From UHGV virus genome UHGV-0017034: 20,747 nt of DNA; one strand, given 5' to 3'. The position numbers and the translations under genes were made by a program. Below, one piece after another: positions 105-20,633 of the stretch. The notes beneath the pieces were generated by a model that did no database searches, had not been told where the DNA came from, and worked only from the letters and a program-made list of their open reading frames with translations. Origin of the DNA: a virus. Each line of letters starts with the position of its first letter. Position 1 is the first letter of the stretch.

Positions 105-129
105 AAAAAAGCCACCCCGAAGGATGGCT
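105..129 (-). terminator. Rho-independent terminator closing the tail-tube transcript
   Basis: Minus-strand RNA AGCCAUCC-UUCG-GGGUGGCU (8-bp stem with one G-U, UUCG tetraloop) followed by U6 (plus-strand A-run 105-110); lies 9 nt after the stop of the 138-608 CDS. Confidence 0.7.
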
Positions 130-608: not shown

Positions 609-662
609 TATTCTTTTCCTTCTATTTTAAACAATAGGGCACATACCCGTAATTCTATTTAT

Positions 663-965
663 TTAGCGGTTGCTCAAACGTCTATAACGAAGATGAGCGA
701 TCCCCCTATTTGTGCTAACGGTAATTACCGCCCCTTGCGGTGCAATACAAGAATGAATCTGTCCCCAATCATGACCCTTATGGCTTCCAGAAACACACAA
801 ACCATGAATAAGCAATTCAGAGTCACCACCGCCACCACCGGAAGAATGAGCACAGAATGAAATAGTCCCGAAAGCGTCGGCTGTCCAACCGTTAGGAATA
901 TCAAACCATCCTTGATTTGCTTTACCCGCCCTATTCCCCAAAGCGCCATCTACCCAAAATGCCAT
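663..965 (-). CDS. Small FDIPNGW-motif protein, paralog 3 of 3 (100 aa), function unknown
   Basis: ORF; start ATG overlaps the upstream stop (TAATG); shares M-x-(F/Y)-W, FDIPNGW, Gly/His-rich core and TVS motifs with the two upstream ORFs. Confidence 0.6.
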   Translation of the reverse strand: MAFWVDGALGNRAGKANQGWFDIPNGWTADAFGTISFCAHSSGGGGGDSELLIHGLCVSGSHKGHDWGQIHSCIAPQGAVITVSTNRGIAHLRYRRLSNR

Positions 966-1270
966 TAGTGCATTCTCCTGAATTTAAAATAATGCAAACT
1001 ACCTTTACCCAATGTAAAGCTAACGGTAGCACCAGCGCCAACTAAAGAACTAGCGCCCCAACTCCCAGCATCACCAGCATGATGACCTGATTCAATCAAT
1101 CCATTTACAGCCAATTCAGAATCAAGATCACCAGCACCGTTAATGGCTTCCATATGAGCAAAAACAATTCCGCATGAATCAGTAACCCAGCCGTTGGGGA
1201 TATCAAAATATCCACCATTAGCCCAAATACTAATAGCGTTTGACATTCTTTGATTTATCCATCCAGCCAT
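965..1270 (-). CDS. Small FDIPNGW-motif protein, paralog 2 of 3 (101 aa), function unknown
   Basis: ORF; 2-nt gap to the upstream stop; YFDIPNGW, GAGDLDSEL, WG and TVSFTLG...HYFKF motifs conserved with its neighbours. Confidence 0.6.
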   Translation of the reverse strand: MAGWINQRMSNAISIWANGGYFDIPNGWVTDSCGIVFAHMEAINGAGDLDSELAVNGLIESGHHAGDAGSWGASSLVGAGATVSFTLGKGSLHYFKFRRMH

Positions 1271-1272
1271 AA

Positions 1273-1569
1273 TTAAAACTCCATGAATTTAAAATATTCA
1301 ACACCACCTTCACCCCCTAAACCAAAGGAGACGGTGCAGCCAGCAGGAACAAACGAATTTATAGTAGATCCCCAATTGGTCCCACCACGACGACGAGCAA
1401 CGGTCAAACCATCTACGTTAATATGTGCATCAGACCACCCACCACCAGCATTATGACGCATTACAGCGACACCAGCACGAGCAGTACCATAGCCGTTAGG
1501 AATATCAAATACATGCCATTTTAAAGCATCGATTTTAGTATTAATTTCACTACTTACCCAATATCCCAT
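1273..1569 (-). CDS. Small FDIPNGY-motif protein, paralog 1 of 3 (98 aa), function unknown
   Basis: ORF with AAGGA RBS 7 nt upstream; VFDIPNGY, GGGWSD, NWG and TVSFGLG...EYFKF motifs. Confidence 0.6.
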   Translation of the reverse strand: MGYWVSSEINTKIDALKWHVFDIPNGYGTARAGVAVMRHNAGGGWSDAHINVDGLTVARRRGGTNWGSTINSFVPAGCTVSFGLGGEGGVEYFKFMEF

Positions 1570-1582
1570 ATAAGAATCCTTA

Positions 1583-1600
1583 GCGGAGATTTCTCCCCGC
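1583..1600 (-). promoter_or_regulatory. Intercistronic GNRA-tetraloop hairpin between the fiber gene and the paralog triplet
   Basis: Minus-strand RNA GCGGGGA-GAAA-UCUCCGC (7-bp stem with one G-U, GAAA loop), no U-tract, immediately upstream of the paralog-1 RBS. Confidence 0.4.
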
Positions 1601-1607
1601 TTTCCAA

Positions 1608-4600
1608 TTACCCTAATTTAGCTTCAATTGCAGCAAGACGTTCACGAAGAAGTTTATTTTCTTCGCTCATTTCTTGGACCGCTTTAATTAAAAGCGCGTT
1701 CACTGCGGAGTTTGAAATTGTTAAAATTTCTTCTGGGTTATCAAAACCACCAATTTTTGCGGTTTTAACAGCTTCCGGTAATACCTCTTGTAAATCCTGT
1801 GCGATAATACCAATCTCATGACCTATAACTTCTCGGTCATTAAGAGATTTAACTTTATCGTAGGTTTTAACTTTGAGTTTATTTACCTTATCCACCGCAT
1901 TTTCTTCGTAATCTTCAACATTAATTTTCAGACGACGATCGGAACGAATATAAACATCGTTAAAGTTTCCGTTACCAGTGGCATGAAATTCTCCACTTGC
2001 ATGGAATTGATAATCAGCACCCTGAACATGAAGAACCGCTGCCGCAGTATTATTACTATCACCGGGACAATGAACGTCCATAGCAGCGATGTAGTTACGC
2101 CCCCAATCAACCGCTTTCCAAATAGCATGAGCACTATCAACGCTTTGTTGACAGTCAACCAACAAACCAGCAGGTCGGTCTCTCCATGCAACATATGCAC
2201 CACCAGAAACCTCACCACGGATAAGTCCTTGATCTGCGGCATAAGGAACACGCCCTTCCAGTTTAATCATCGCGCCCTGGAAGTGATGTGTAAATTGTCC
2301 ACCGTGGTTATTGCGAATATGTAAAATACCCTCATCTGTAGCCCAGATAACAGCCTTTTCCGTATCGCTATCATCTCTAAACCAGACGTGGCGAGCACCA
2401 GCAGAGTTTTTGATAGTAATCCCGGAAGGTCCATGCACAGTAAAAGCGCCAGCAACATCAAACATCAAACTGTTATCTGTCCTACGTTCAGTATAGAAGT
2501 GATAACCTTTGGAATCACCGACTTCCATCACTGCCGCGCGACCAACTTCTGAATTTCCCCAATTATTAATAGAGAATCGTTCAGAGCTATTATTCATCTG
2601 ATTTAGGTATAATGTACCATCAGTGAATGTTTCGCCAAAGAATCTGGTTTTAACGCCGTTAGTACCCCCCACGCGTTCAAATTCAGCCAAGAAACCTTTG
2701 GAATCTCGCATACTCAAAACGTTATTGCGTCCTGTATTACTGTTACCCCAATGGATTAATTCAATATAGTCCATTGACTGACGAGACCCTGATCTAAACA
2801 CCATATTATCTTCGATGCGGGTGCTACCATCAATTCCCAGATGTAAACAGCGTGCGGTAGCTGTGCCACCTAGATCTAATCCACCTTCGGCGAAATCATA
2901 ACTAAATGGTCTACGAGTGTTCCACGTCCCAAAGGAATCTTTTAAATCGGTAGTAAGAATATGGAAGCTAGAACCATCATTACGAAGGATTAAACCATAG
3001 TTACCACCTTTGACAGCCAAACGAGCATTTTCAGATAATGCCACTTCGCTATTCATTACAATTTTCTGGCCTCTACCGCCAGTAATATGTAATTCACCGT
3101 CTTCAATCAGGTTTATAGAGTTTTGACCGTTGTCGTTCCACCAAATAAAATCTTTGGTCTGACCATCACCGAAGCCAAACCAGCCATTACGAACATCTTG
3201 TCCAGTGCGATAATCCATGAAATTAAAATGACTTGATTCGTTTGGTCCTCGACGAATATCAATACCAGAATTTCCAGTAACACCGCCATCCAATGTTAAT
3301 TTCTTGACATGTAACCCGGATGTTGCTGACAGCAATAATTCCTGATTTGTATCTTCGTATCCAGTAGCAAGACGATATGCGTTATCATCAACTGTCTCAT
3401 GCCAGATTGTAGCTGGTGCACAACTACGGAAGCGACGCAACATCTTTTTAGCATTTGTCGGTTGTTCGTTCAAATGCTCAATGTCATATTGGCCTTGATG
3501 ATTGCCAGCAAAATTTAATGTTCCACGGTTGCTAAAGTTATTGAACGATGAAATGTTAAGAGCATCAAAAATTTCGTCTGCAACAGGTTTTTCACCACCC
3601 AGATATTCAGGAGTATCCAACAGGTTTAAAGAAACACCACCGGAAGAAACTTGATATTCTGCTAAAACAAATCCTGTATGTGCACCGTAGTAAGCGTAAA
3701 GATCGTAATTGTCGCCATCGGTTGGAATAGCGCAAAAATGTTGTTCATAATGCCAAATAGTATAATACGCATTGAATACAACACCTTTCGGGCTATTGTT
3801 GCCGCATCGAATCACCAATTCGATAATATTGGCTTGTCCATTATGTCCTACGTTATAACCGTTACCACCAACCAAACGGATCTTAGCCGTGCGACCGTGT
3901 TGTTGTGGCATTGTCAAAGTGCCTAGTTTAAACCAACCACCCTCGATACCAAAATTAAGCGTCTTCTGGAACAGTCGGTCAATTTCTGCTTTCGAATATG
4001 CGCCAATTTCAGCCGGAGTAGGTTTATCACCTTCATGATACATGCGGTGAGAATATGCCAAATGTCCCAATTCATCATAGCCGTATGTTCTTACCGTATG
4101 AACCGGATTAGACCCATAAGTGAACTCAAAACCACGAGCATGATTAACGCCGGATGGGTGCGGAACATGCAAGATCATTGCAATATGACCCGCCAGGTCA
4201 TTCATGCGGAATGCACCAAAGTAGTCAAGATTACGCGCACTCGGATCATCAAAATAGTTTGCGGTCTTAGACAGCAAATAACCATCAGTGTAAGTGTTTA
4301 CGTGCTTTTTGATGTACTTGCCATCACTCGATCCATCGGCTGCATCAATACGGCTTTCTAAACGTGCCAGTTCGGAATCAGTGTAAGACTTGTTATTGTC
4401 AACTTTGCTATGAATTGCTGTATTTTTGGCTTCAACATCACGGGTTAATGCTGCGACGTTATCCGCTGCCTCTTGCTTATTGGCTGCAATCACACCAGTA
4501 AGGTTATTGTAGGTGTCAGTTAACTGATTTTCCGCATAGGCGTGATTTGCTGCGATAGTGCGGTCAGTTTCTGCCTTAATCAAATCAACTTTGTCATTGA

Positions 4601-5132
4601 TTGTTTTGTGATTGCTTGCGATGGTTGCATCGGTACGGGATTTAATATCATCAACTTTTTTATTGATGCGGGTGTCCAGTTCCTGAGTTGCTACAGCAGC
4701 CGCAATTTTATTAGCGTTGATGGTATCCGACAATTCAGCTTTAACACCAGCAAGATCGGAAGCAGCTTTATTTTTATTGGCATCGATTGTCGCGTCGGTT
4801 TCGCGTTTAATTACATCAACTTTATTGTTAATTTCTGCATGATTTGCTGCGATAGTAGAATCAGTAGTTTGTTTAATTTCATCTACTTTAGCGTGAATAT
4901 TGCGGTCATTTACTGCAATTGTGCTATCCAATTCTTGTTTGTTAGCATCAACTTTAGATTCTAGTGCCGCGTGAGTTTCAGGAGAAACAGAGATTTGAAC
5001 TACTTCATGATCTCGGTCTTTGGTGAAAATAACATGGTCTTTAAGGTTGATTGCTACCTCACCGACCTGTAATTGTTCCGGCGTTGGTTTTTTGCCAGAA
5101 ACATTTGTTCGTTTAAATTGGATCGACTGCAT
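1608..5132 (-). CDS. Fiber protein (1174 aa) with N-terminal coiled-coil repeats and C-terminal S74 intramolecular-chaperone autoprotease domain
   Basis: Long ORF with GAGGTGA RBS; residues ~50-260 are ~22-aa repeats (D-x-T-I-A-A-N-H...K-V-D-x-I-K); internal GYHFYTERRTDNSLMFDV resembles the P2 gpH / T4 gp37-type distal fiber region as recalled; C-terminus SDRRLKINVEDYEENAVDKVNKLKVKTYDK...LLRERLAAIEAKLG matches the S74 chaperone domain of endosialidase / T5 L-shaped fiber type. Confidence 0.85.
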   Translation of the reverse strand: MQSIQFKRTNVSGKKPTPEQLQVGEVAINLKDHVIFTKDRDHEVVQISVSPETHAALESKVDANKQELDSTIAVNDRNIHAKVDEIKQTTDSTIAANHAEINNKVDVIKRETDATIDANKNKAASDLAGVKAELSDTINANKIAAAVATQELDTRINKKVDDIKSRTDATIASNHKTINDKVDLIKAETDRTIAANHAYAENQLTDTYNNLTGVIAANKQEAADNVAALTRDVEAKNTAIHSKVDNNKSYTDSELARLESRIDAADGSSDGKYIKKHVNTYTDGYLLSKTANYFDDPSARNLDYFGAFRMNDLAGHIAMILHVPHPSGVNHARGFEFTYGSNPVHTVRTYGYDELGHLAYSHRMYHEGDKPTPAEIGAYSKAEIDRLFQKTLNFGIEGGWFKLGTLTMPQQHGRTAKIRLVGGNGYNVGHNGQANIIELVIRCGNNSPKGVVFNAYYTIWHYEQHFCAIPTDGDNYDLYAYYGAHTGFVLAEYQVSSGGVSLNLLDTPEYLGGEKPVADEIFDALNISSFNNFSNRGTLNFAGNHQGQYDIEHLNEQPTNAKKMLRRFRSCAPATIWHETVDDNAYRLATGYEDTNQELLLSATSGLHVKKLTLDGGVTGNSGIDIRRGPNESSHFNFMDYRTGQDVRNGWFGFGDGQTKDFIWWNDNGQNSINLIEDGELHITGGRGQKIVMNSEVALSENARLAVKGGNYGLILRNDGSSFHILTTDLKDSFGTWNTRRPFSYDFAEGGLDLGGTATARCLHLGIDGSTRIEDNMVFRSGSRQSMDYIELIHWGNSNTGRNNVLSMRDSKGFLAEFERVGGTNGVKTRFFGETFTDGTLYLNQMNNSSERFSINNWGNSEVGRAAVMEVGDSKGYHFYTERRTDNSLMFDVAGAFTVHGPSGITIKNSAGARHVWFRDDSDTEKAVIWATDEGILHIRNNHGGQFTHHFQGAMIKLEGRVPYAADQGLIRGEVSGGAYVAWRDRPAGLLVDCQQSVDSAHAIWKAVDWGRNYIAAMDVHCPGDSNNTAAAVLHVQGADYQFHASGEFHATGNGNFNDVYIRSDRRLKINVEDYEENAVDKVNKLKVKTYDKVKSLNDREVIGHEIGIIAQDLQEVLPEAVKTAKIGGFDNPEEILTISNSAVNALLIKAVQEMSEENKLLRERLAAIEAKLG
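1611..1943 (-). other. S74-type intramolecular chaperone domain (C-terminal ~111 aa of the fiber), predicted to be auto-cleaved
   Basis: Domain begins at SDRRLKINVED, with the conserved Ser-Asp-Arg-Arg-Leu-Lys start and a terminal coiled coil. Confidence 0.65.
4355..4985 (-). repeat. In-frame ~66-nt (22-aa) tandem repeats encoding the fiber coiled-coil shaft
   Basis: Successive units DSTIAANHAEINNKVDVIKRET, DATIASNHKTINDKVDLIKAET, DRTIAANHAYAENQL and others, read from the translation. Confidence 0.6.
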
Positions 5133-5161: not shown

Positions 5162-5179
5162 GGGAGGCGTTAACCTCCC
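5162..5179 (-). terminator. Hairpin with U-rich tail between the 277-aa gene and the fiber gene (attenuator or weak terminator)
   Basis: Minus-strand RNA GGGAGG-UUAACG-CCUCCC followed by UUAUUCCUGUUUUAU. Confidence 0.4.
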
Positions 5180-5205: not shown

Positions 5206-6039
5206 TCAGTATTCCCCGAAGTCGATCCGGTCATGGATAGAAACGGCTTCAATCTCGGCTGGTGTCGGTTTTTCTTCTGTGGAATACACTTTCACCCATC
5301 CAGAATTACCGTCTTTCTGGACTGTGCGAACTCGTAAACGTGGTGCGCCGGAAGCGGTGCAAGTTAATTGCCATCCACCATCTTCATTAGGTTGAGCGTG
5401 AATTAGTGAAGTATCAGCACTAAATGGATTAGATGCGCTTGATCCCTGATAAGTTACGAAACGGTTTCCGGCTAACGCTTCGCTATCAATACCCCCTGTA
5501 AATGGAGATACGCCAGCACCAATACCAAAATCACCCTGACGTAAGATCCGGCCTTCGGTCGCGATACCCCTTGCAAGAATCCCGCCATCTGGTTCAAGTT
5601 TAAATTCCAGTGTTACCGCTTTGTTATCGCTACCACGGGTTTTATGTGATGTGACGTAAGCATCATAGATGACATAGTAACCAGTGTTAGCAGCACTATA
5701 ACCAGAGTTCACAACATAGAACATACGGAAGCGTAAAGGTGTTTTATCCTCTACCGCTTTCATCAACATGTCTTGATGTTCGTCATCCAGAACACGGTTT
5801 ACTACTAACGTAGTTGATTCAAGTTTACGATAGCCAGCCAACTTACCAGTAACATCATGGTCATATTCTTCTAACGTCTGGATCTCTGTGGATTCGGTGA
5901 TCGTAGGGAATGCTGCGATGTTCTCGATAGGACTAAATGCAGGATCGAAAAAGTCCGGCTGGTTATCCACCATAGTAGACACGGAGACTTCAACATGCGA
6001 CCCCGTGAAAATGTCTAAGTTATCTTGTGTAATATTCAT
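5206..6039 (-). CDS. Virion structural protein (277 aa) of uncertain role; C-terminus carries the KPTPAEI motif also present in the fiber
   Basis: ORF with AAGGGG RBS 6 nt upstream; C-terminal EEKPTPAEIEAVSIHDRIDF parallels fiber GDKPTPAEIGAYSKAEIDRLF; beta-rich composition. Confidence 0.6.
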   Translation of the reverse strand: MNITQDNLDIFTGSHVEVSVSTMVDNQPDFFDPAFSPIENIAAFPTITESTEIQTLEEYDHDVTGKLAGYRKLESTTLVVNRVLDDEHQDMLMKAVEDKTPLRFRMFYVVNSGYSAANTGYYVIYDAYVTSHKTRGSDNKAVTLEFKLEPDGGILARGIATEGRILRQGDFGIGAGVSPFTGGIDSEALAGNRFVTYQGSSASNPFSADTSLIHAQPNEDGGWQLTCTASGAPRLRVRTVQKDGNSGWVKVYSTEEKPTPAEIEAVSIHDRIDFGEY

Positions 6040-6048: not shown

Positions 6049-6471
6049 TTAAAAACGCGCTAGATAAGAAAATTTAAGGCTAAGTGTCCCAACGATACCC
6101 CCATCACTAGAATCATCGTCATAATCGGTATTAGAAGCTACTGGAGTGATATCTGAAATAGAGAAGCCCAAATCTTTAAATCGTGGGTTATCCGGCTGAA
6201 TCTGGATTATCTGGCAAATACCCTCATGGATTTTTGTTTCATGAATCTGAGAATATAATTGCATTTCGATAACGCATTCAGCTTGCATTGCATTACCACC
6301 ACGGACCCTATTGTAAGTCTCATTCATTCCGGTAATCCAACAAACCACATCATCACTAAAGCCTTGCTGAGTTTGTTCTACGTTTAAAGCCAGACCTAAA
6401 TCTTGTTCGATAATATCCTGCAAGGCGCGTTTGATTTTCAGTCTAGGCATGTTATTAACGGTAGCGAGCAT
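6049..6471 (-). CDS. Head-tail connector / tail-completion-like protein (140 aa from the RBS-supported start)
   Basis: Start at 6471 (MLATVNN...) is preceded by AGGGGGTACAC, the same SD type as neighbouring late genes; the longer ORF to 6519 would overlap the upstream gene by 65 nt; function inferred from position between capsid and tail genes. Confidence 0.55.
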   Translation of the reverse strand: MLATVNNMPRLKIKRALQDIIEQDLGLALNVEQTQQGFSDDVVCWITGMNETYNRVRGGNAMQAECVIEMQLYSQIHETKIHEGICQIIQIQPDNPRFKDLGFSISDITPVASNTDYDDDSSDGGIVGTLSLKFSYLARF

Positions 6472-6745
6472 GTGTACCCCCTGCCAGAGTGATAAAGCAA
6501 TCAGTTGTATTGTCACCATTGCGCTTAACGTATTGAACTTTGAAACGCTGATTTTCTACAATGACAATATCCCCCTGCTTTAAGTCTCCCTCACGACAAA
6601 ATAAAAATTCTGTCTCTGTCATTACCCCTTGTTCGTCGGTAGTAGTAATTTCATGATAAGCACGAATTGATTTACCACCTTCCACCGAAAATACAGGAGC
6701 ACTTCGGAACATTCTTGATAATTGTGATTCTGATAATTTGAACAT
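6455..6745 (-). CDS. Head-tail adaptor / head-closure-like protein (96 aa)
   Basis: ORF with AAAGGGGGTAACT RBS; small mixed-charge protein directly downstream of the capsid gene; function inferred from synteny. Confidence 0.5.
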   Translation of the reverse strand: MFKLSESQLSRMFRSAPVFSVEGGKSIRAYHEITTTDEQGVMTETEFLFCREGDLKQGDIVIVENQRFKVQYVKRNGDNTTDCFITLAGGTHARYR

Positions 6746-6775: not shown

Positions 6776-6803
6776 AAAAAAGCCCCACCGTTAGGCAGGG
6801 CTA
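6776..6803 (-). terminator. Rho-independent terminator downstream of the capsid gene (partial terminator raising capsid stoichiometry)
   Basis: Minus-strand RNA AGCCCUGCC-UAAC-GGUGGGGCU (9-bp stem with two G-U) followed by UUUUUUG. Confidence 0.65.
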
Positions 6804-6936: not shown

Positions 6937-8943
6937 TCATTCAGCGGAGATGTGAAGAACTTTCAGAGCTTCCGGCTGGGTTACAACGTAATCCAGATCT
7001 ACCCAGATACGCGGAACGATAGCAGACTGTGCGCGGTAGGTAGTGTCATCAATGTCAAGTTCCAGACCACCCCATTCACCGATGGTAATAGCGTCGAACG
7101 ATCCCAGAACGATGTGGTCTACCGGAATAACACCAGAAGTAACTACGTCGTAACCAGCCAGTTTACCGTTTTCGATGATATAACCGGAAACACCGTTATC
7201 TTTCAGGGTAGATTCCAGTTCAGCAGCAGTTGCACCGCTCATTGCAAACTTGATCGCCTGAGCAGGAACGCCAGCGTCGGTCAGTTTAGCAATTTCTTTC
7301 AGGAAGTCTTTATAAGAGAAAGCAGCTTTCTTCTCTACGCGACCAGCATCTACCAGTTGTTTAATCACACCAGCCGGACCACGAGCATTTTCTTTATCAG
7401 ACAGAATCAGTTGTTCCAGTTTGATGCGAACAGCCTGGTTAATGTGATCAGTGATCAGAGTAGCGATGCCGGGTACGGTTTTTAGGCTCGCTCTGCTGAG
7501 CGGATTCCCACCAGCAAACGTCTTAGGAGACAGTTTCACGTTTGCAAATTCAGCTTTACCTTCCGGCGCAGCACCGTTTTCATCAACGAAGCCGAAAGAT
7601 TCAACGCTGGAAGCGGTCATTTTAGGAATAGCGGTCGGCGAAGTCAGACCAGACAGGACTTTCACACCAAGACGACCCAGAACGGATTCCGGCAACAGCA
7701 TCGCTACATAGGAATCATTCAGCAGTTTTTCGTCGGTTACAGCGGTCAGAGTAGCTTTGGTGTTACCATCAGCAGCAGCACGCATAGCAGCAGTCGGAAC
7801 GAATACAGAGCCACCGCGAGCAGCACGACCACGCTGCATAGTTGCAGTAGCAGCCATTGCAGAAAACTCGGCTTCGTGAGCACCCAGAGCTTCACCATCT
7901 ACCAGAGAGCGAATTACGTTGTTCAGGTCAAAAGTTTTTTCCATTTTAGAGTCCTTAATTTGTTGTTCGTTATTACGTTGAGCATTGACGAGATTATTTA
8001 GTGCCTTAGTGCGGAATGCTTCCGGCGTCATATCTTTAACTGCCAATGCGCGTTCTAATTCTTCGTCGTTAATATTTAGCTCGCGTGCAATTTCGCGAAT
8101 TTCTAATTCGTCTTCTTCGGAACGTTCAGCCACTTCCTCGATTTTTTCTTCTTCATCCGGAGCGGCTTCACGTTCTTCTTTTACTTCTTCTGCTTCCCGA
8201 ACAGTTGAACTATCATCATCAACACTTTCAGGATGTTCAGCGTCTTTTCCGTCTTCGAGATTTTCATCTTCTTTATTCTCTTCAACTTGGCGCTCTTGAG
8301 TTTCTTCAACTTCCGATTCTTTATTTTCTTCTACCGGAGCTTCTTCAACCGGAGCGGATTCTTGTTCTTCTTTGATTTCTTCGATTTGTTCTTTAGTCAT
8401 ATCGCGTTTAGCCTCCAAATTAACTGTGATAGTATTTAGAGAGCGATTTAAACCGACCGAATCGTCCGCCGGGACCGTCACAAATGAAATTTCGTGCGGA
8501 ATCCATTTAGAAACAATGAGTTGCGATTTAGCGTAATCGATGTGATATTCTTTAATGTCATAGCCGACAGAAATTTTTTCCATCGTACCTTCAATAACTT
8601 TATTACGAATATCATTAGCCAAAGTGCCATGTTTAGAGAATTTAACCAGAGCACGGCCTACGTTATCCGCATCGATTCGAGCGTCGCAGACTACACCTAA
8701 ATGATTATCGAAAATATGATTGAACAGCAACGGAGCGTTATTATTCAGACGAGACAGATCAACCGCTTCCGGTGTATGTACCAGAATTTCATCTAATACC
8801 ACCATTTCTTGATTTTGCTCATCCCAAAATTGGCGCTGATAAGGCTGTGTACTTGAGAAAGCAATTTCAAATTCGTATTGATCGTTATGCCCTTCGTTAA
8901 TAACTCCACCGTAACCGTTAAGATCGCGGCGAAATTTAAGCAT
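6937..8943 (-). CDS. Prohead protease - scaffold (delta domain) - HK97-fold major capsid protein encoded as one 668-aa ORF
   Basis: N-terminus has HK97-type protease motifs (PLLFNHIFDNHLG with His, KISVGYDI with Ser, HEISFVTVPADD); residues ~180-330 are an acidic coiled-coil linker; C-terminal ~340 aa has major-capsid character; AAGGTGA RBS. Confidence 0.85.
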   Translation of the reverse strand: MLKFRRDLNGYGGVINEGHNDQYEFEIAFSSTQPYQRQFWDEQNQEMVVLDEILVHTPEAVDLSRLNNNAPLLFNHIFDNHLGVVCDARIDADNVGRALVKFSKHGTLANDIRNKVIEGTMEKISVGYDIKEYHIDYAKSQLIVSKWIPHEISFVTVPADDSVGLNRSLNTITVNLEAKRDMTKEQIEEIKEEQESAPVEEAPVEENKESEVEETQERQVEENKEDENLEDGKDAEHPESVDDDSSTVREAEEVKEEREAAPDEEEKIEEVAERSEEDELEIREIARELNINDEELERALAVKDMTPEAFRTKALNNLVNAQRNNEQQIKDSKMEKTFDLNNVIRSLVDGEALGAHEAEFSAMAATATMQRGRAARGGSVFVPTAAMRAAADGNTKATLTAVTDEKLLNDSYVAMLLPESVLGRLGVKVLSGLTSPTAIPKMTASSVESFGFVDENGAAPEGKAEFANVKLSPKTFAGGNPLSRASLKTVPGIATLITDHINQAVRIKLEQLILSDKENARGPAGVIKQLVDAGRVEKKAAFSYKDFLKEIAKLTDAGVPAQAIKFAMSGATAAELESTLKDNGVSGYIIENGKLAGYDVVTSGVIPVDHIVLGSFDAITIGEWGGLELDIDDTTYRAQSAIVPRIWVDLDYVVTQPEALKVLHISAE

Positions 8944-8988: not shown

Positions 8989-10500
8989 TTAGGGATCGGC
9001 TGGGGAATTTTTTTCTTCACCCTCGCCATCAACGATAATATTTAGTGCGCTCTTTTCGGCTTGAATCTCTGAGAATACTTTTTCAGGATCATCACCACGT
9101 TCAAGAATAACGGCAGTACGTGATTTAAGTCCTTTATCAATTAAAGCAATCTCGGCGCTTACGTCTTTAAATGGATCGACGGATTCAAAACGCGGACGAA
9201 TAATAGTTGTATTATCGATAATATGTGGAATTGCAGTAATACGAATCGGAACAATACCACGCGCGGAATAATGGCGTAGATATGCTTCGAAAATTGGCAA
9301 TACCACGGTTTCAATCAATTTGTTTTGCAGTGCTTTAACGCGCGTTCTTTGAAGTAATTCGCCGTAGCGTGCGGCGCTGTAATTTATTTGGCTAGTATCG
9401 CCAGTTAAGCCCTGATTGAACACGCCAAGACCCATCGCTATACTCGTGAACATACCAGCGTTAAAGGAATTGAAATCATCGCCGCTTTGCGTGGATTGAA
9501 TACTCTTGATCGTTGCCCCTTCCGGTAATTCCTGAATAGTACCTGGCGCGAAATCGTGAATAACTTCCGGCGCTTGATATTGTTCATCATCTTCACCAGT
9601 ATCAAAATCGTCACCAGAATCTTTCGGACGCTCGATGAACGCCATGCTACTAGCTGAAATTCGTTTCTGGACCAATACAGCTTCGCGGAATGCGTCTTGA
9701 TGTGCGATATCCTTAATCACTGGCAGGAAGTCAGTCACACCACGCAGAGATTCAGCCGCAAGTGGTTGATAATAATGACATACTTGCGAAGCATCTACGC
9801 GATAGTTATCACCTGTGTAAGTCTGAGTCAGTAGGTTGATTTTACGAAACCAGTATGCTACGGGCTTCATCGTCTCTACGTCATACTCCACACCTTGATA
9901 TATCGCACGGTCTTTGCTTACTTCACGGTTTAGCGACCAGTCGCATTTATCAGCAGACAGGATAGAAACATTTAACTCATTGTTTTCTTTGGTTAAAACG
10001 ATGAAGCACTCACCACCCATAACGCGCTCACGTTCAGCCATTACCAGCAGTTCACGGAAGTTAAAGCGACCGTTACGAGAGAAGCGTTTAGCATTCTGCG
10101 CCCACTTCCAGAAAGCATTCTCGATCTGCTTATTCAGTGCGCTATCAAGTTTGCCATTTGATTTAACGATTGATGGCTTCGGATCTAGGCCAGTACCAAC
10201 CACCATATCGGTGATGTATTGCGTGTAGCGACTGCCTACGGAAGTGTTTAAGGCCAGAGTACGACCCTGATCATAAAGGCGCTTACCGTTCGATTTGAGA
10301 GCCTTATTGAAGGTTCCTGTAATGGTGTCTTGTTGAAGTGATCCATCAATGCGATCACCAACCAGACCTAAACTACGTTTAGATAGGTCTTTCTGGAATT
10401 TTTCTACTTGCTTATCGATGAAAATTTTTGGTTGTTGCTGGCGGTGATTAGTTTTAACTGGAGTTTCTACCGCCTTTTTGCGTCGAAAAAGATTAAACAT
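8989..10500 (-). CDS. Portal protein (503 aa)
   Basis: Size, position between terminase and protease/capsid, acidic C-terminal tail; AAGGGG RBS overlapping the stop of the upstream gene. Confidence 0.75.
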   Translation of the reverse strand: MFNLFRRKKAVETPVKTNHRQQQPKIFIDKQVEKFQKDLSKRSLGLVGDRIDGSLQQDTITGTFNKALKSNGKRLYDQGRTLALNTSVGSRYTQYITDMVVGTGLDPKPSIVKSNGKLDSALNKQIENAFWKWAQNAKRFSRNGRFNFRELLVMAERERVMGGECFIVLTKENNELNVSILSADKCDWSLNREVSKDRAIYQGVEYDVETMKPVAYWFRKINLLTQTYTGDNYRVDASQVCHYYQPLAAESLRGVTDFLPVIKDIAHQDAFREAVLVQKRISASSMAFIERPKDSGDDFDTGEDDEQYQAPEVIHDFAPGTIQELPEGATIKSIQSTQSGDDFNSFNAGMFTSIAMGLGVFNQGLTGDTSQINYSAARYGELLQRTRVKALQNKLIETVVLPIFEAYLRHYSARGIVPIRITAIPHIIDNTTIIRPRFESVDPFKDVSAEIALIDKGLKSRTAVILERGDDPEKVFSEIQAEKSALNIIVDGEGEEKNSPADP

Positions 10501-10510: not shown

Positions 10511-11005
10511 TTATCGCGTAAGACGTAATTTGATATTTTTAATCGGGCTAATTCCCTGTTTACGTCGTTCGGCTTGAATTAATTTTGATAACTGACGTTC
10601 ATAATCAACTTTTAGAGTCTGGAGAACACCCAATGACTCATAAACGAAAGTATTCCCTTTCACTGTCATTTGAGATAATGCGGCTTCGTCCCCAGATAAA
10701 CGGGCGAAAATAACTTGTTCCAAAATGGCGATAGTTTCCCGCAGATATTCTTTTTTGGATTGTTTGGCGAATACTGGCAAAACAGTTAATTCCTGCATTG
10801 ATACCAGTTCTTCTTCAAAAGTTATTACGATGGTATATTTACCTTCGGCAAAATCTAAGGTTTTAATCTCATGATTAGCCGGAGTATCATCAACCTGATA
10901 AATGATACCTTTACTATTTCCTACCTGAATTGTTACACCCTCTTCATTCGCCAGCGTGATTTTTTCACCTTTACGAATTACTAAGGGAATTAGTTCTAAA
11001 CTCAT
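10511..11005 (-). CDS. Hypothetical protein (164 aa) with a gpW-like (head-tail joining) C-terminal half
   Basis: ORF with AAGGGG RBS; sits between large terminase and portal, where lambda W lies; C-terminal LRETIAILEQ...GNTFVYESLGVLQTLKVDYERQL loosely matches the gpW helix-strand-strand-helix pattern. Confidence 0.4.
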   Translation of the reverse strand: MSLELIPLVIRKGEKITLANEEGVTIQVGNSKGIIYQVDDTPANHEIKTLDFAEGKYTIVITFEEELVSMQELTVLPVFAKQSKKEYLRETIAILEQVIFARLSGDEAALSQMTVKGNTFVYESLGVLQTLKVDYERQLSKLIQAERRKQGISPIKNIKLRLTR

Positions 11006-11077: not shown

Positions 11078-12982
11078 TTAGAACGATGTTATCCAGCTAC
11101 GGCCTCTATTTGGACGTCTGACGATGTTTTGACGTTGTGGTCGTGTGATTGGCTTAGTTTCTTCTATTTGCTCGTTAGATTGCGATTTAGGAGCTTTTAC
11201 GGGTTCTTCGACAACACGGTTTAAGCTGTCTTTCATTGCAATGAGTTTATCCCATGACATTTTTGAAAGAACGTAGCGAGAAGCCGCTGTAGCATACACT
11301 GCGCAGTCGAGCGCCTCGTTCCTAACGCCTGGGTTCTTTACCCATCTCACGCCAGTAGTAGTACGCTTGACAGATTCACTTAAAAGCTGATCGAGATAAT
11401 CATCAGGAACGGTTCCTGATATTTCTAAGCTAATGTGAGGATTGTCTTTCAGGTTTCTAACCAACATTTCACGAAATGCAGTTTTACCCACGTTAACACC
11501 CAACATAAGCAATTCATGACCACCTGTGCGGGTAGGTTTAACCGGAATGATCGGAGCGTTACCAGCAGAACTACCTTTGATAGCGTGTAAGTTCTTCCAC
11601 TTGCCGCAAATACGGTATCCAGCTTGAGTGAATCGACCGTTCGATGTATCAAGGAAGCTGGCGAGCATAGGAACACGATCACCCGATACAGTAGTAAATT
11701 TGGTTTTATGGAAGTTGATTAATCTATCCCATACAGGGGATTCATATCGTTCACAGTTATGATCGTAAAAGCTGCGATGATCCAGAATATAAATCTTATC
11801 CTTTGCCACGCCCATGATTGTAGTTTCTGCGCGATCTAATTGCTGGTCAGTACCCGCACACAAGAAAATCACGTCATCAGGGATATTCTCGATAGAAACA
11901 TCTGTTTTTAGTTGTTCCAGTTCATTTGCTTCTACTGCCGTGTCCTGATCGTCGTATACCTTGCCTAACACGGTGTTATAAAATGATTGTAAATCAAAGG
12001 ATTGCCACGCATGACTAAAATCAACCACACAAGCGCGGATCGTGCTGAAAGGTGAATACAGACGGCTGATCCAGAATCCTGCTACCTCACTTTCACGGGT
12101 TGCTCTCCACTCTCCTTGTGCCACCGCCCTGATCCGCTCTCCTTCTGTCCATGCGTTCTTACAGTGGGGGCAAATATAACGAGCGGTATCAGGATCGGGT
12201 AAGTTCTTACCATCAATGTTACGCCATTCAAACTGTACGTTTTCCCACTCGATCACCTGGTGTCTACCGCAATGAGGACACGGAACAAAAAACATACGCA
12301 TATCGCTTGATAACCATTGCTGGTTAATGCTTCCGAGCTTACTGGTCGGGGTACTGGATACGACTAATCGGCCTTCATCGCCAAAGGTAGTTAAACGGTT
12401 AGCAGCCAGTGCCACCGGATCACCTTCTTCTGAGGCTGTAGCAGCATCGATTTCGTCAAGCAGTCCGACCTTTGCTGTCTTACCGCGTAGGGTTGATGGA
12501 CTAGTAAGCGATACCATATAAAGGAAGTGGTTTGATTTGAGCTGGAGCTGATTGTTGTTATTAACAGAATTGCGATCATTCTTGTCTGTAACCACGTCTT
12601 TTAATGCATCACATGCTTCGATAGACGGTCGGATCTTACCCGCGAGATATTGAGACATTTCTTTAGCGGTTGATTGTCCGATAATCATATTGCATGGATC
12701 GTTAGCCATCTGGTTAAATAGGATGCCGTTCAAGATGGTAGTCTTTCCGATCTGCGCACTGGTCATCAGAACATACTTTTTCTTGTTCTCAAGGAAAGGA
12801 GCATCAATCATACCTTTCTGGAATGACAGCAATTTAACTTTATCCCCAGCTTGAGGACCATCTACCAGCACCATATTCGCTTCGCACCATTCAGAAGGAA
12901 GGAGCTTAGGCGGTGGCGTAATATATTTGGCTGCATTTTTGAGAATCTTTTTTAATTTGGCCTTATTTGAAATCAGTTTCAT
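11078..12982 (-). CDS. terL: Terminase large subunit, lambda GpA family (634 aa)
   Basis: Walker A-like [10 protein letters not shown]; motifs matching lambda gpA as recalled ([11 protein letters not shown] vs LTAGIDSQLDR; [11 protein letters not shown] vs RRNEALDCFVYA; CPHCG...YICPHC zinc-finger-like pairs); GAGGGT RBS. Confidence 0.9.
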
Positions 12983-15893: not shown

Positions 15894-16085
15894 AGTGGAA
15901 ATCCTCTAAAAGAAAGTGAATCAAGTAAGTTCACTATTATTTATAACGAGAATTTTTTATCTATTTGGAAGTGATTGGATTCAGTCGGGCTAAAGCCCTC
16001 CTTCATATATTTGATTAAATCATCATCAAAACGAAGAAGTATCTTTAGAATATAAGAATCTTTCTTTTGGAGAAATTATAATCAG

Positions 16086-16350
16086 GAAGCAATTTAGCAA
16101 CCGAAGGTTGCAATCCCGAAGGGATACCAATACCTTTCTAGAAAGTGATTGTTACTCACTTCGTTCGTTTACTAGAATCAGTTAGTAACTAGTATTAAAT
16201 CCCTTTCTAAGAAAATCCTTTCAAAAGCGAGTGAACGCCGTAGGCGTGAACGTGAGCGAAGCGAACTATCCAATCCCTTTCGAATCCTGCTTGCAGGTCT
16301 TAGAAGGTGTTGATGGGCGCTTCGCGCACGGCTACGCCGTATTCTTTTTG
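16086..16350 (+). ncRNA. Candidate structured noncoding RNA (hairpin-dense, ORF-free, ends at a terminator)
   Basis: Hairpins GCAACC-GAA-GGTTGC (16097-16111), ATCCC-GAA-GGGAT (16113-16125), palindrome CTTTCTAGAAAG (16134-16145), AGTGA/TCACT, ACGCC-GTA-GGCGT, CCTGC-TT-GCAGG; stops in all frames; weak TATAAT at ~16074; 5' end uncertain. Confidence 0.3.
16317..16350 (+). terminator. Rho-independent terminator (plus strand) with tandem hairpins
   Basis: GCGC-UUC-GCGC then ACGGC-UAC-GCCGU followed by AUUCUUUUUG; no protein-coding gene upstream on this strand. Confidence 0.6.
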
Positions 16351-16471
16351 CGAGATCTTTCTTGAACGTAGTGAGAGAAAACGAGCAAAAAGGAGAACGT
16401 TAGTTCGAATTTTATATTCTATGGTCTGTGGGGTGAAATGTCTTTCAAGATCATACACTTATGAGATTGAA

Positions 16472-16593
16472 GTGTAGGGTTAGTGTAGGTGTGTAGGTTT
16501 CATAGTGTAGGTTTGAGGGTGTTATAGTGTAGGTTTACTGACTAGTGTAGTGTAGGCCAATCCCTTTAAAGCGTAGGTTTGTAGTGTAGGTTT
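16472..16593. repeat. Iteron array: about 9 copies of GTGTAGG(TTT)
   Basis: Copies start at 16472, 16483, 16491, 16505, 16527, 16550, 16584, with a variant GCGTAGGTTT at 16571 and a half-site at 16545; spacing often 11 or 22-23 bp; flanked by an AT-rich tract (16594-16700). Confidence 0.7.
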
Positions 16594-16698
16594 TTCATCA
16601 AAAATTTTGATAGAAAATTCTTGTATATTATTTAACCGGAAAATCACCAAAAATCGCTGTAAATGCATGATTTAAAAAGAATTATCAAAAGGTCGCCG

Positions 16699-16707
16699 TG
16701 CTATAAT
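16699..16707 (+). promoter_or_regulatory. Extended -10 promoter element TGCTATAAT
   Basis: TG-n-TATAAT perfect match; -35 weak. Confidence 0.35.
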
Positions 16708-16787
16708 AGGTTATAAAGGTTGATAATCGTTATCCGCCATTTTCACACAAAAATTTTGATAGTCATTTCTCGCTTAGGTCAAGTGCA

Positions 16788-16816
16788 TTGACAACTGTCA
16801 AGGATTATTTTATACT
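16788..16816 (+). promoter_or_regulatory. Sigma70 consensus promoter TTGACA-17-TATACT with overlapping palindrome TTGACA-AC-TGTCAA
   Basis: -35 at 16788-16793, -10 at 16811-16816, exact 17-bp spacer; GTCAAGTGC 9-mer at 16778-16786 shared with the 15358 region. Confidence 0.6.
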
Positions 16817-17158
16817 TTTTCTCATTGGTAGGGGTTGAAATTTTCGAAACAATCCCCATATTGATGATAAACAAGATTTTTTCGTGTATAAATACATGCA
16901 TGAAATGATTGTTCACTTCTGAAAATCCCCTGATTCACTGTTAACACACACAGCACTGGTTAAACACACAGTGCCTTTTCGATTGAATAATGTACGAATT
17001 GATTAATTATTAATCTTCTCTTTAGCAATTCGTGCTCCCGCTGATCAGATATACAGTGGTTTTGCAGGGTTTTCTGAAATGACTTTTATAAATAGAAGTA
17101 TCGAGGGCGAAAAGCTCTTTTTATTGTCCTTATTAATCCACATTTGAGGAATCTACTT

Positions 17159-17338
17159 ATGGCTAGACCTGTTAAGTTTACTCGTGAAATGATTGTTGAT
17201 ATTGCTAAACGCTTTTATGGCGATACTGAACGAGGCGGCGAGAATTTCTTTAAGAAGGAAGGAATTGATAGAAGCGGATTCTATAAGCTAATGAAGAAAT
17301 ACGAAATTCAGATAAAGATTAACGTTCAAGTTTGTTAA
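17159..17338 (+). CDS. Small HTH protein (59 aa), paralog of the 13705-13932 product
   Basis: GAGGAA RBS 9 nt upstream of ATG 17159 (the track ORF begins at a TTG at 17144); MARPVKFTREMIVDIAKRFY...GIDRSGFYKLMKKYEIQ parallels the other paralog. Confidence 0.55.
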   Translation: MARPVKFTREMIVDIAKRFYGDTERGGENFFKKEGIDRSGFYKLMKKYEIQIKINVQVC

Positions 17339-17379
17339 TCCACTTTCACTGAGAATTATACGATGGCTTTAAAAATAAA

Positions 17380-17409
17380 AAGCCTCCCTTGTTGCAGCAA
17401 AGGAGGCTT
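17380..17409. promoter_or_regulatory. Long hairpin between the small HTH gene and the 333-aa gene; terminator-like only in minus orientation
   Basis: AAGCCUCC...GGAGGCUU with inner UUGC/GCAA pairing; plus-strand A-run upstream gives a U-tract only on the minus strand. Confidence 0.4.
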
Positions 17410-17454
17410 GAAATGAACAATTAAAACTAACACAGCATTCAGGAGTATTTATAA

Positions 17455-19426: not shown

Positions 19427-19978
19427 TTAAGACACATCAAATTCATCGTCTTCTTCTGGTTCTTGTTCCGGTTCATCCATTAATGGTAATTCTTCTTCCT
19501 CGTCTTCTCCCAAATCTGCATTTTCGAACAAGTCCCCTACTTCATTTAAACGACGCTCGATAATCTCTCTTAGCTTATTCTTCAATGTTTTCTGGTCATT
19601 GGCAGATTCGAGAATTTCTAGGGCATCGATTGTGGCGATCTGCAAAATAGTCTGCTTCACTTTCCCGCAATATTCCGCTAGCTCCTGCTCCACATACCCG
19701 ACGGGAATCAGGAGATTCATCGCTTCCTGGTTCTCTCGTTCGGCTGCATCTGCTAATGCTCTCTCACGGCGTAATTTCTCTACGTCGATTTGTTCCTTGA
19801 CAGTAGTTTCTTTAAGCGGGTTGATGATATTTTTCAAGACCCATTCTGTTCCTTCTTTGGCTGGCACGCGGCGGGTATTGGTATTAAATGGCATTCCTCG
19901 TTCTTGCCATTTCTTAGCGGCGTTAATTGTATAGCCGTATAAACGGGAAATTTCTGTAAGGGTTAATTCTTCTTTCAT
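19427..19978 (-). CDS. terS: Terminase small subunit, lambda Nu1-like (183 aa from the RBS-supported start)
   Basis: LTLTEISRLYGYTINAAKKWQERGMPF parallels the lambda Nu1 N-terminal HTH (IFGASIRTIQNWQEQGMPV as recalled); acidic C-terminal tail; GGAGGA sits 8 nt upstream of Met-6 (19978), while the first ATG at 19993 has no SD. Confidence 0.65.
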   Translation of the reverse strand: MKEELTLTEISRLYGYTINAAKKWQERGMPFNTNTRRVPAKEGTEWVLKNIINPLKETTVKEQIDVEKLRRERALADAAERENQEAMNLLIPVGYVEQELAEYCGKVKQTILQIATIDALEILESANDQKTLKNKLREIIERRLNEVGDLFENADLGEDEEEELPLMDEPEQEPEEDDEFDVS

Positions 19979-20089
19979 CCGGTTATCCTCCATTAAATTT
20001 GCGTAAAATTATTTATCTGATCTGCGCATTCAGGAGAGCGCCTAAAACGCTTTATAACGAAGGGAAAGATCGAGGCATGGAAAGGGATT

Positions 20090-20217: not shown

Positions 20218-20246
20218 TTGATTTGGTCAAGTCTTTTTTATAAATA
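20218..20246 (+). promoter_or_regulatory. Possible promoter for the 20278 gene (TTGATT, short spacer, TATAAA/ATAAAT)
   Basis: -35-like TTGATT at 20218-20223 and -10-like TATAAA at 20239-20244; spacer is 15-16 nt, so weak. Confidence 0.3.
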
Positions 20247-20277
20247 ATCGAAAATATTTTTCACGCGAGGGCAAATC

Positions 20278-20583: not shown

Positions 20584-20602
20584 TGTAAGTGATTGATTCT
20601 AT

Positions 20603-20633
20603 AGCCCTGTCCTTGTGATGGGGCTTTTTTATT
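20603..20633 (+). terminator. Rho-independent terminator (plus strand)
   Basis: AGCCCUGUC-CUUGU-GAUGGGGCU (9-bp stem with two G-U) followed by UUUUUUAUU. Confidence 0.7.

Follow-up and report, generated by a model that had tools for sequence, protein, structure and literature searches.

A tail-tube protein paralogue as the possible mount of a T-even-like receptor fibre in temperate siphophages

Introduction

Side fibres determine which strains a phage adsorbs to; atomic detail of their attachment to the tail exists for very few siphophages, the Escherichia coli examples considered here being T5 and Ur-lambda. In T5, side fibres are carried by a distally placed paralogue of the tail tube protein (TTP), whose gene adjoins the tube gene; the mount comprises the TTP-like ring p140, the collar p132 and the L-shaped fibre pb1, and pb9 has no fibre-docking function (PMC10038345). 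The authors of that work apply the collinearity of gene order and position to p140 (PMC10038345). In Ur-lambda, the collar formed by Stf lies at the gpV/gpM junction (PMC12617516). The receptor-binding fibres of T-even phages provide a further point of comparison, the DVYIR|SD site of the fPS phages being the gp38-docking tip of published T-even fibres (PMC7917993). Our literature search on neck fibres, tube paralogues and tube-domain fibre anchors returned only the T5 and lambda precedents. The mount discussed below, a tube paralogue bearing a fibre on a long-tailed phage, is apparently undescribed, and apparently common in uncultured relatives.

Here we analyse a stretch of 20,747 nucleotides from the viral genome UHGV-0017034, an E. 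coli prophage (the window), in which a 277-aa protein gene (5206..6039, minus strand), termed the anchor, is followed by a 1174-aa fibre gene (1608..5132, minus strand, ATG start) located 5' of the tail-tube gene.

Results and discussion

Gene order in the window and in related loci

The features of the locus are collected in Table 1. The 156-aa protein is assigned as the major tube protein; its homologue in PK8568 carries the PGAP name 'phage tail tube protein', its gene directly precedes the chaperone and tape measure protein (TMP) genes, and it is followed by a strong terminator-like hairpin (129-110), as is the capsid gene. Past position 1 of the window, the best-matching complete genome encodes two chaperones, the TMP (809 aa), a distal tail protein, two further tail proteins and a 1248-aa tip protein, with no second fibre gene. 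From the fibre gene to the tip genes is about 6.5 kb, and this gene content therefore means that the fibre is not adjacent to the tip genes. The preliminary description had set the fibre apart from baseplate fibres by its place in the operon, and the genes past position 1 agree with it: no rearrangement of the tail module has placed the fibre beside the tip genes.

Table 1. Position and supporting evidence of features at the fibre locus, in window coordinates.
Feature	Coordinates	Strand	Evidence or remarks
Major tail tube protein, 156 aa	138..608	-	PHROG 158 (major tail protein) E 4e-20; lambda TTP Pfam match below cut-off
Block common with T4-like phages (fibre residues ~363-1174 and three small genes)	647..4046	-	blastn
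Small paralogue C, 100 aa	663..965	-	
Small paralogue B, 101 aa	965..1270	-	
Small paralogue A, 98 aa	1273..1569	-	99% identical to G37-3 protein in gp38 position
C-terminal intramolecular chaperone of fibre, residues 1064-1174	1611..1943	-	Pfam Peptidase_S74; SDRRLK at 1064; predicted cut after R1063
Fibre junction domain, residues 265-380, ends KPTPAEIGA	3993..4340	-	PHROG tail fibre domains at 268-381
Fibre helical rod (predicted), residues 55-262	4347..4970	-	periodicity, Pro/Gly depletion; apolipoprotein-like helical-repeat Pfam match below cut-off
Fibre N-terminal putative docking domain ('plug'), residues 1-50	4983..5132	-	motif IQFKRTxxxGxKPTxxxLxxGEIxINxKDxxIFTKD
Putative weak terminator-like hairpin between anchor and fibre genes	5162..5179	-	consensus scan only
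Anchor C-terminal fibre stub (putative 'socket'), residues 161-277	5206..5559	-	GDFGIGAG, NRFVTY, KPTPAEI; terminates DRIDFGEY
Anchor N-terminal tail-tube-like domain, residues 1-160	5560..6039	-	
Tail terminator, 140 aa	6049..6471	-	terminator fold found on testing
Possible lambda gpFII-like head-tail joining protein (stopper), 96 aa	6455..6745	-	Pfam Phage_attach E 1.3e-4, under curated cut-off

The terminator gene lies just 5' of the 277-aa gene, and thus the cassette stands between two tube-type genes, 3' of the complete neck set. This set, which appears complete without the anchor, consists of the portal, a 164-aa head-tail joining protein, the 96-aa protein and the terminator. The gpFII-like assignment of the 96-aa protein is weak; wherever its gene was detected among the related loci, it keeps a constant place behind that of the capsid protein. 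A role of the 277-aa protein as tail terminator was considered and ruled out, the 140-aa protein filling that role. All ORFs of the window are intact, and no part of the structural operon is missing; scans with Rfam and for tRNAs gave no match in the window, and a promoter scan was at chance level (20 found, 18.3 expected).

Roughly 50 related loci were compared, about 45 of them with readable cassettes. Wherever these genes were identified among the related loci (about 45 loci), their order is terminator-anchor-fibre-tube, down to about 21% anchor-domain identity, in agreement with the earlier proposal that fibre and 277-aa protein belong together as a unit in this interval. The fibre was also said to lie between connector and tube genes; it does lie upstream of the tube gene, but the interval holds the terminator and a TTP paralogue and not simply connectors. 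The terminator, the anchor N-domain, the tube and the tip genes are constant, and the anchor-tube cassette is hypervariable, encoding an S74 fibre with three small genes, an S74 fibre alone, an S74 fibre with a gp38-type adhesin, or two-protein fibres. Prophages of E. coli, Shigella, Salmonella, Serratia, Enterobacter, Proteus and others often carry the module; among isolated phages, tblastn found it only in the DCP80 record, which is probably chimeric.

A tube-protein paralogue carrying a fibre stub

The 277-aa ORF is conserved (84 homologues), and its family extends over hundreds of genomes with invariant motifs. On testing, the protein has the tube-protein fold, a beta-sandwich with one helix. 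It matches PHROG 158 (E 5e-9), as does the 156-aa tube protein, and BLASTP cross-matches between anchors and tube proteins of different loci reach 20-31% identity; within the window, direct BLASTP between anchor and tube protein gave no significant match. We regard the two as paralogues because of the fold, the common PHROG and the cross-locus matches. Searches of the PDB by sequence, with the single protein and as a profile, found nothing for the anchor, and none of anchor, terminator and small paralogues has a family in Pfam or NCBIfam.

The C-terminal stub, whose motifs are invariant throughout the anchor family, aligns with the fibre's own domain preceding KPTPAEIGA (hhalign E 3.4e-5, probability 72%), and by this profile comparison the C-domain of the anchor and a junction domain of the fibre are homologous. 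AF2 models the stub poorly (pLDDT < 50 for residues 162-220). Longer anchor relatives have additional fibre repeats inserted ahead of the identical C-terminus. The 277-aa protein is thus a TTP paralogue carrying a C-terminal fibre stub. With the anchor N-domain as a profile, 153 protein clusters were retrieved, the majority being fibres of 600-1560 aa with the tube-like domain at the N-terminus; of the newly retrieved clusters, 109 of 149 are at least 400 aa long, with the anchor domain spanning residues ~3-150 and followed by fibre domains. The four contexts checked all lie between terminator and tube genes. As encoded, anchor and fibre are a single fused chain in most relatives.

Where the two are separate, as in the window, the protein encoded directly after the anchor begins with the same ~45-residue N-terminal domain in all seven aligned loci. 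Loci of E. coli, Salmonella, Edwardsiella, Proteus (two proteins), metagenomes and DCP80 all have this plug at the start of their first cassette protein, and the remainder of these proteins differs; in one relative the plug has a weak Pfam match to Mtd_N. The plug and socket motifs are kept and everything between them varies, and in Proteus an extra 198-aa piece bears both. The conserved anchor end and the conserved N-terminus of the next protein suggest a plug-and-socket joint.

A fibre with a lineage-specific N-terminus and a T-even receptor module

The preliminary description had proposed a fibre with a long N-terminal coiled coil, a C-terminal chaperone and a receptor-binding-like distal region, and each of these parts is recovered. 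Residues 55-262 contain only two Pro/Gly residues. The hydrophobicity spectrum of this segment has maxima at 2.2 and 5.5, which are harmonics of an 11-residue repeat, and 5 of 500 shuffles reached as much in the 3.4-3.8 band. This pattern is consistent with a long helical coiled coil. The heptad-based coiled-coil score, obtained before the 11-residue period was recognised, had been unremarkable. At the C-terminal end, Peptidase_S74 (PF13884) scores 55.9 bits over residues 1064-1123 (gathering cut-off 22; E 5e-15). The predicted S74 site has a Ser-Lys dyad, S1064-D-R-R-L-K1069, with the Lys five residues on from the Ser and DVYIR in front; a cut NDVYIR|SDRRLK at S1064 is predicted to free exactly 111 aa.

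The distal two thirds of the fibre are a T-even long-tail-fibre receptor module, with a Pfam Gp34_trimer match at residues 644-745 and a match to PHROG 1699 'long tail fiber distal subunit' at residues 644-1169 (E 4e-137). A single blastn alignment relates the block in Table 1 to Krischvirus vB_EcoM_G37-3 (85.2% over 3419 nt), in which the counterpart is gp37 and three small genes in the gp38 position; other T-even gp37 genes are 85-94.5% identical across parts of the block. The DNA similarity to the T4-like phage begins at window position 4046 (about residue 362), within the junction domain whose KPTPAEIGA motif stands at residue 370. At about the same residue the gp37 similarity ends, so that the gp36-joining N-terminus of gp37 is absent, and the N-terminal third of the fibre is common only to prophage relatives. 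Since residues ~363-1174 and the three genes form one block with 85% DNA identity, they constitute an exchangeable host-range cassette. The small paralogues A, B and C have the motifs M-x-x-W and FDIPNG in common; paralogue A gave no Pfam match even at E 10, and no gp38 signature (Gp38_N, polyglycine receptor domain) was found in it, although Pfam does detect gp38 in relatives with a true gp38.

Proposed architecture and alternative readings

We propose, with a confidence somewhat short of even, that the 277-aa and 1174-aa proteins make up a side fibre mounted on the tail via a tube-type ring, with a slight lean to a distal one. The anchor would assemble as, or inside, one hexameric tube ring, whose six chains would yield two trimers of the stub, which requires a 6-to-2x3 arrangement. 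The N-terminal 45-50 residues of the fibre should dock non-covalently onto the anchor stub ending IDFGEY, much as successive T4 long tail fibre proteins join. From there the fibre would run through a rod of ~30 nm built of 11-residue repeats and the junction domain into a gp37-type distal shaft of roughly 700 residues. Once trimerised, the S74 chaperone is predicted to cleave itself at R1063|S1064, exposing the DVYIR tip, a probable binding site for the three small proteins of the gp38 slot, which would act as tip adhesins or as assembly factors. Such a fibre would serve primary, reversible host recognition and set the host range.

For the ring itself, we slightly favour the tube-tip junction, as in T5 and Ur-lambda. 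The order terminator-anchor-fibre-tube is collinear with a head-proximal ring, which counts against this lean. The competing placement makes the anchor ring the top tube ring, directly beneath the terminator, with neck or collar fibres at the 'shoulder' of the tail that bind receptors and are not whiskers; this is the reading of the preliminary description apart from the function, and it is a serious contender that we hold to be the less probable of the two. Gene order is the sole argument for a neck position of the fibre. The order is invariant over deep divergence wherever the genes were identified and, to our knowledge, the genes of tube-fold proteins are collinear with position along the tail in every known case; the side of the tube gene taken by a new duplicate is nevertheless close to a coin toss. 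The anchor N-domain diverges about as much as the terminator (21-60% identity) and faster than the tube protein, which fits the top-ring placement. A mirror-tree analysis of 12 loci gave the anchor domain partial r values of 0.73 with the terminator and 0.70 with the distal tail protein (permutation p 0.82), values that favour neither placement. Against a shoulder mount, the fibre measures ~85-95 nm by rough inference and the tail ~120 nm plus tip (TMP 809 aa), so neck-mounted fibres would miss the surface when the tip arrives. Both the T5 and the Ur-lambda side-fibre anchors are distal, and a special ring at the polymerisation end needs length sensing, whereas seeding on the distal tail protein does not.

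Other readings depart further from a single ring mount. The 277-aa protein might occupy several or many tube positions, or be the major tube protein, so that the tail is decorated along its length, as the frameshifted SPP1 gp17.1* and the lambda gpV Ig domain illustrate. C-terminal decorations are common on tube proteins, and stacking at any level of the tube is in principle open to a paralogue that has both tube-like faces; we nonetheless consider this improbable, because the 156-aa protein holds the canonical place before the chaperone and TMP genes, has the stronger PHROG match and is followed by the strong hairpin, and because a domain fused to a complete fibre of 700-1560 aa in most relatives is implausible at about 180 copies per tail. 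That a defective prophage carries the module as a decaying or non-functional insertion seems more improbable still. One relative (L009) does have an uncalled stretch of ~2 kb after the anchor and then a 407-aa S74 ORF, and IS insertions occur in some relatives, but the intact ORFs, the complete structural operon and anchor motifs invariant over hundreds of genomes speak against decay. The preliminary description compared the fibre with wac and the lactococcal neck passage structure (NPS), which would make it a whisker on connector proteins with a structural or environmental sensing function, the 277-aa protein being unrelated to attachment. Only the nearness to neck genes and the long coiled coil favour such a whisker. 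The fibritin foldon and repeats are not among the Pfam or PHROG matches, nor are NPS or collar-whisker families among those to Pfam, PHROG or the PDB; the fibre ends in an S74 domain, the anchor has a tail-tube and not a connector fold, distally the fibre is of the T-even receptor-binding kind and has an adhesin slot, the cassette turns over like a host-range locus, and anchor and fibre are fused in most relatives. These single-chain fusions already largely refute the whisker, and we give it the smallest chance of all.

The tube-ring mount also admits a bolder extension, which we offer as a speculation that is probably wrong in at least some respect. In a large group of uncultured temperate siphophages, the N-domains of two trimeric fibres would themselves be a tail-tube ring, making fibre and DNA conduit one assembly of a kind unseen in solved virions. 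The ring might be head-proximal, giving shoulder-mounted receptor fibres on a non-contractile tail; in the lineage of the window the fibre would be split at the plug-socket joint, and a heterotrimer of the three ~100-aa paralogues may cap its tip in place of monomeric gp38.

If the proposed mount is correct, the plug-socket joint and the recombination point at KPTPAEIGA would be a natural swap junction that brings T-even receptor modules onto a temperate chassis, useful for host-range engineering and for predicting the host range of prophages. For annotation, a second tube-like gene between terminator and tube should not be equated with a neck protein or a second tube protein.

Comparison with known systems

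T4 fibritin and the TP901-1 NPS are, like the present fibre, fibrous proteins with a long coiled coil and a gene near neck genes; similarity to them and the foldon are absent here, and the fibre has a receptor-binding distal part and a tube-fold attachment domain. The wac gene adjoins T4 genes 13-15. The NPS gene of TP901-1 is located at the end of the tail module and so offers no precedent by synteny. Among relatives with a solved virion structure, roseophage R4C (Cronusvirus) is the closest; nothing is annotated there between the head-tail joining and tube genes, and a side fibre annotation is also absent. It is the enterobacterial lineage that has added the anchor-fibre module.

With T-even gp37 of the S16/T2/fPS type, the fibre has in common residues ~363-1174 together with the small genes (85% DNA identity to G37-3), the predicted cleavage site DVYIR|SDRRLK and the construction of a fibre as a chain of proteins, like T4 gp34-37. 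It differs in its N-terminal 362 residues (plug, rod and junction), which are specific to the prophage lineage and stand in place of the gp36-binding end; in the gp38 slot, filled by three ~100-aa paralogues without detectable gp38 similarity; and in the mount, a myovirus baseplate there and a putative siphovirus tube ring here.

Like the fibre proposed here, Stf of Ur-lambda is a receptor fibre of the OmpC type, trimeric and T-even-related, borne by a temperate E. coli siphophage and fixed by a ring that the N-terminal domains of the fibre chains form themselves, with flexible linkers. The lambda domains, however, form a 12-mer collar outside the gpV/gpM junction, whereas the N-terminal domain here has the tube fold; lambda stf follows J at the end of the tail operon and relies on the Tfa chaperone, not on S74.

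T5 offers a close parallel in its duplicated tube protein encoded beside the tube gene, its special ring as a side-fibre platform (here a predicted one), its dispensable receptor-binding side fibres with a C-terminal intramolecular chaperone, and its pb9, which the distal tail protein in relatives of the window phage resembles. Each p140 chain of T5 contains two tube domains, each anchor chain one; relative to the tube gene, p140 is encoded towards the tip and the anchor towards the neck. T5 also places a separate Ig-like dodecameric collar, p132, between ring and fibre. By gene content the interval here, which consists of the anchor, the fibre, the three small paralogues and the tube gene, has no p132-type collar gene. 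Instead, the putative ring protein itself runs into a fibre stub or, in most relatives, into the whole fibre. A tube-protein domain serving as the fibre anchor would, if true, be a third solution beside those of T5 and Ur-lambda.

Gene order and prophage setting

The window is an E. coli prophage, at least 80% of which is covered by related prophages in 11 complete E. coli genomes; a truncated ycdX gene forms its right end. All of its structural genes lie on one strand. The preliminary description noted a fibre gene between connector genes and the tube gene and proposed from this position a possible neck or collar fibre. In the related prophage of PK8568, the genes beyond window position 1 encode two chaperones, an 809-aa tape measure protein (TMP), a distal tail protein and two tail proteins and, further on, a 1248-aa tip protein, lysis genes and a serine recombinase, with no second fibre gene among them. 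This order, with the TMP and tip genes on the far side of the tube gene, therefore bears out the observation: the fibre gene does sit upstream of the tube gene, away from the tip genes (about 6.5 kb separates fibre and tip genes), and its unusual placement is real.

Structural genes of the window
Feature	Position	Strand	Match
gpA-type large terminase	11078-12982	minus	
164-aa head-tail joining protein, lambda gpW position	10511-11005	minus	PHROG 5774
Lambda-family portal	8989-10500	minus	
S78 protease-capsid fusion	6937-8943	minus	
96-aa protein	6455-6745	minus	weak gpFII-type match
140-aa protein (tail terminator)	6049-6471	minus	
277-aa anchor protein	5206-6039	minus	
1174-aa fibre	1608-5132	minus	
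~100-aa paralogue A	1273-1569	minus	
~100-aa paralogue B	965-1270	minus	
~100-aa paralogue C	663-965	minus	
156-aa tube protein	138-608	minus	

Several other features of the prophage were recorded. At the prophage end, adjoining the truncated ycdX and 6.4 kb from the large terminase, is a small-terminase-like gene, which carries that name in the PGAP annotation of ETEC1739 (window 19427-19993 and 20227-20747). Related prophages in other strains occupy a different chromosomal site, the PK8568 copy lying beside hicB/yncJ; given these differing sites, the serine recombinase may use more than one target. Window 15894-17450 is an AT-rich, ORF-poor 1.5-kb stretch (GC 34-36%) with no Rfam match; within it, especially at 16481-16593, TAGTGTAGGT(T/G)T occurs in five to six iteron-like copies at 11-44-nt spacing, which could be an origin or operator array. 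PK8568 also carries a NUMOD3 homing-endonuclease-type gene (L002 9826-10596) between the 217-aa tail protein gene and DUF6950; the relatives with listed tail genes (Serratia, Proteus, Edwardsiella, Salmonella and metagenomic) showed no such insertion there.

The anchor is a tube-protein paralogue

The 277-aa protein (anchor), made up of a tail-tube-like N-terminal domain and a C-terminal fibre stub, is a tube-protein paralogue; its reading as a connector was rejected. No neck component seems to be missing when it is set aside, although the 96-aa protein is only weakly assigned as FII-like. Strong GC-rich terminator-like hairpins with T-runs stand directly 3' of the capsid and 156-aa tube genes (window 6781-6802 and 110-129, minus strand). 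They may be attenuators that keep the two major structural proteins at a high ratio, and the hairpin after the 156-aa gene is consistent with its product being the abundant tube subunit.

Fibre-type motifs are invariant in the last 117 residues of the anchor, which terminate in DRIDFGEY; by hhalign (E 3.4e-5), residues 219-269 share homology with the junction domain of the fibre itself. The C-terminus of anchors reads (I/V)D(F/L)G(E/T/L) with Y, F or E as the last residue (the socket). Across the E. coli, Salmonella, Edwardsiella, Proteus, metagenomic and DCP80 loci, the first protein after the anchor always opens with IQFKRTxxxGxKPTxxxLxxGEIxINxKDxxIFTKD (the plug), beyond which it varies from locus to locus. 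In Proteus the anchor is followed by a 198-aa protein and then a 675-aa fibre with a plug. The P. mirabilis 198-aa protein (L006 10882-11478) combines an N-terminal plug, a coiled coil and a C-terminal MDFGTF socket; it resembles a naturally occurring extender of the joint. This arrangement is as expected of a modular, non-covalent joint, in which plug would dock into socket.

The fibre is a chimera

The fibre matches Gp34_trimer (residues 644-745) and Peptidase_S74 (1064-1123) in Pfam and 'long tail fiber distal subunit' in PHROGs (E 4e-137). Residues 55-262 contain only two Pro/Gly and show strong 11-residue periodicity, suggesting a helical rod that would span roughly 30 nm if coiled-coil. 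Cleavage is predicted at S1064, between NDVYIR and SDRRLK, leaving a 111-aa chaperone; T-even fPS phages share this site, and their exposed DVYIR tip docks gp38 (PMC7917993). Window 647-4046 aligns with Krischvirus vB_EcoM_G37-3 in one DNA block at 85.2% identity, the counterpart there being gp37 with three small genes in the gp38 position, all ahead of the holin gene. The block starts at about fibre residue 362, adjoining a KPTPAEIGA motif (residue 370); thus the fibre is a chimera whose N-terminal third is particular to its lineage and whose remainder is a T-even receptor module exchanged horizontally along with the accessory genes.

The three small paralogues (window 663-1569) occupy the T-even gp38 slot and are also found at L010 14061-15005 and L003 6017-6923. 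All begin M-x-x-W and share FDIPNG and a C-terminal aromatic motif, FKF (LRY in C). They are kept one-to-one between E. coli and Salmonella prophages (52%, 47% and 65% identity for A, B and C), match no Pfam family and occur in only four distinct phages (five records) of the phage collection. One idea is that they cap the trimeric DVYIR tip as a heterotrimer, one Trp prong per chain, replacing monomeric gp38.

Distribution and variants of the module

Wherever these genes are identifiable in related loci, they run terminator, anchor, fibre cassette, tube, chaperones, TMP and distal tail protein. Cassettes hold either an S74 fibre, by itself, with the three small paralogues or with a gp38-type adhesin (whose gene lies before or, oddly, after the tube gene), or else a two-protein fibre. 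In a common E. coli variant (L036 13591-14739 and about 19 other E. coli loci among L023-L047) the order is fibre, tube gene and a 168-aa protein whose N-terminal attachment region is gp38-like and which lacks a polyglycine domain; the adhesin gene is therefore downstream of the tube gene. The tube gene here is about 60% identical to that of the window and appears to travel with the cassette. Recombination breakpoints fall within the anchor gene, between its N-terminal (88-92% identity) and C-terminal (72-76%) domains.

A profile of the anchor N-terminal domain, searched against 1.84 billion representative proteins, matched 153 clusters. Of the 149 newly retrieved clusters, 109 reach 400 aa or more and 90 reach 700 aa or more; their tube-like domain spans residues ~3-150 and is followed by G(D/N)xG(V/I/L)G in 85 of the 109 long members. 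Their further domains are S74, gp36, gp37_trimer or Phage_tail_C_2, and they are named 'tail fiber protein' (Serratia), 'tail fiber domain-containing protein' (Leclercia, E. coli) or 'hypothetical protein' (Pantoea). All four contexts checked run from terminator through a tube-domain::fibre fusion (1150-1563 aa) to the tube gene, with a second, 490-aa S74 fibre protein after the fusion in Serratia. From these clusters and contexts, therefore, the single-chain fusion is the common form, which the window's lineage has split in two.

Among 50,697 phage records, only Escherichia phage DCP80 (PQ671644), a 141-kb entry classed as T4-like Gaprivervirus, carries the module. Its first ~22 kb (L001 1-21560) are a complete siphovirus structural module of the window's prophage lineage that looks joined to a T4-like genome; chimeric assembly, or co-packaging of an induced prophage, is the probable explanation of the record.

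Position of the fibre on the virion

The proposed likeness to T4 wac or the lactococcal neck passage structure finds no support in homology or in the fold of the anchor. A neck position as such is a live but unproven possibility, and the conserved gene order, together with the general collinearity of tube-fold genes with axial position, would place the anchor ring at the head-proximal end; we regard this as plausible, if short of an even chance. Placement at the distal, tube-tip junction comes close to an even chance. Both E. coli siphophage side-fibre mounts examined are distal, namely the p140 ring, p132 collar and pb1 of T5 (PMC10038345) and the Stf collar at the gpV/gpM junction of Ur-lambda (PMC12617516), and the distal tail protein is T5 pb9-like in relatives. 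Also in favour of the tip end are the fibre's nature as a host-range receptor module, its roughly estimated length of 85-95 nm against a tail of ~120 nm plus tip, and the mechanism, since a special ring could be seeded on the distal tail protein more simply than one could be added at the precise moment polymerisation ends. A co-divergence test gave no separation between the two positions; other arrangements are unlikely.

Comparison with known systems

The fibre appears to be mounted through a tube-protein paralogue, an architecture that is widespread and unstudied; no description of it was found in the literature searched. Of the relatives whose virion is solved, roseophage R4C is the closest; it shares the window's backbone, but its annotation places no gene between the head-tail joining genes and the tube gene. 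Siphophage side fibres with a dedicated tube-type ring are already known, and the mount proposed for the window would be a variant of these.
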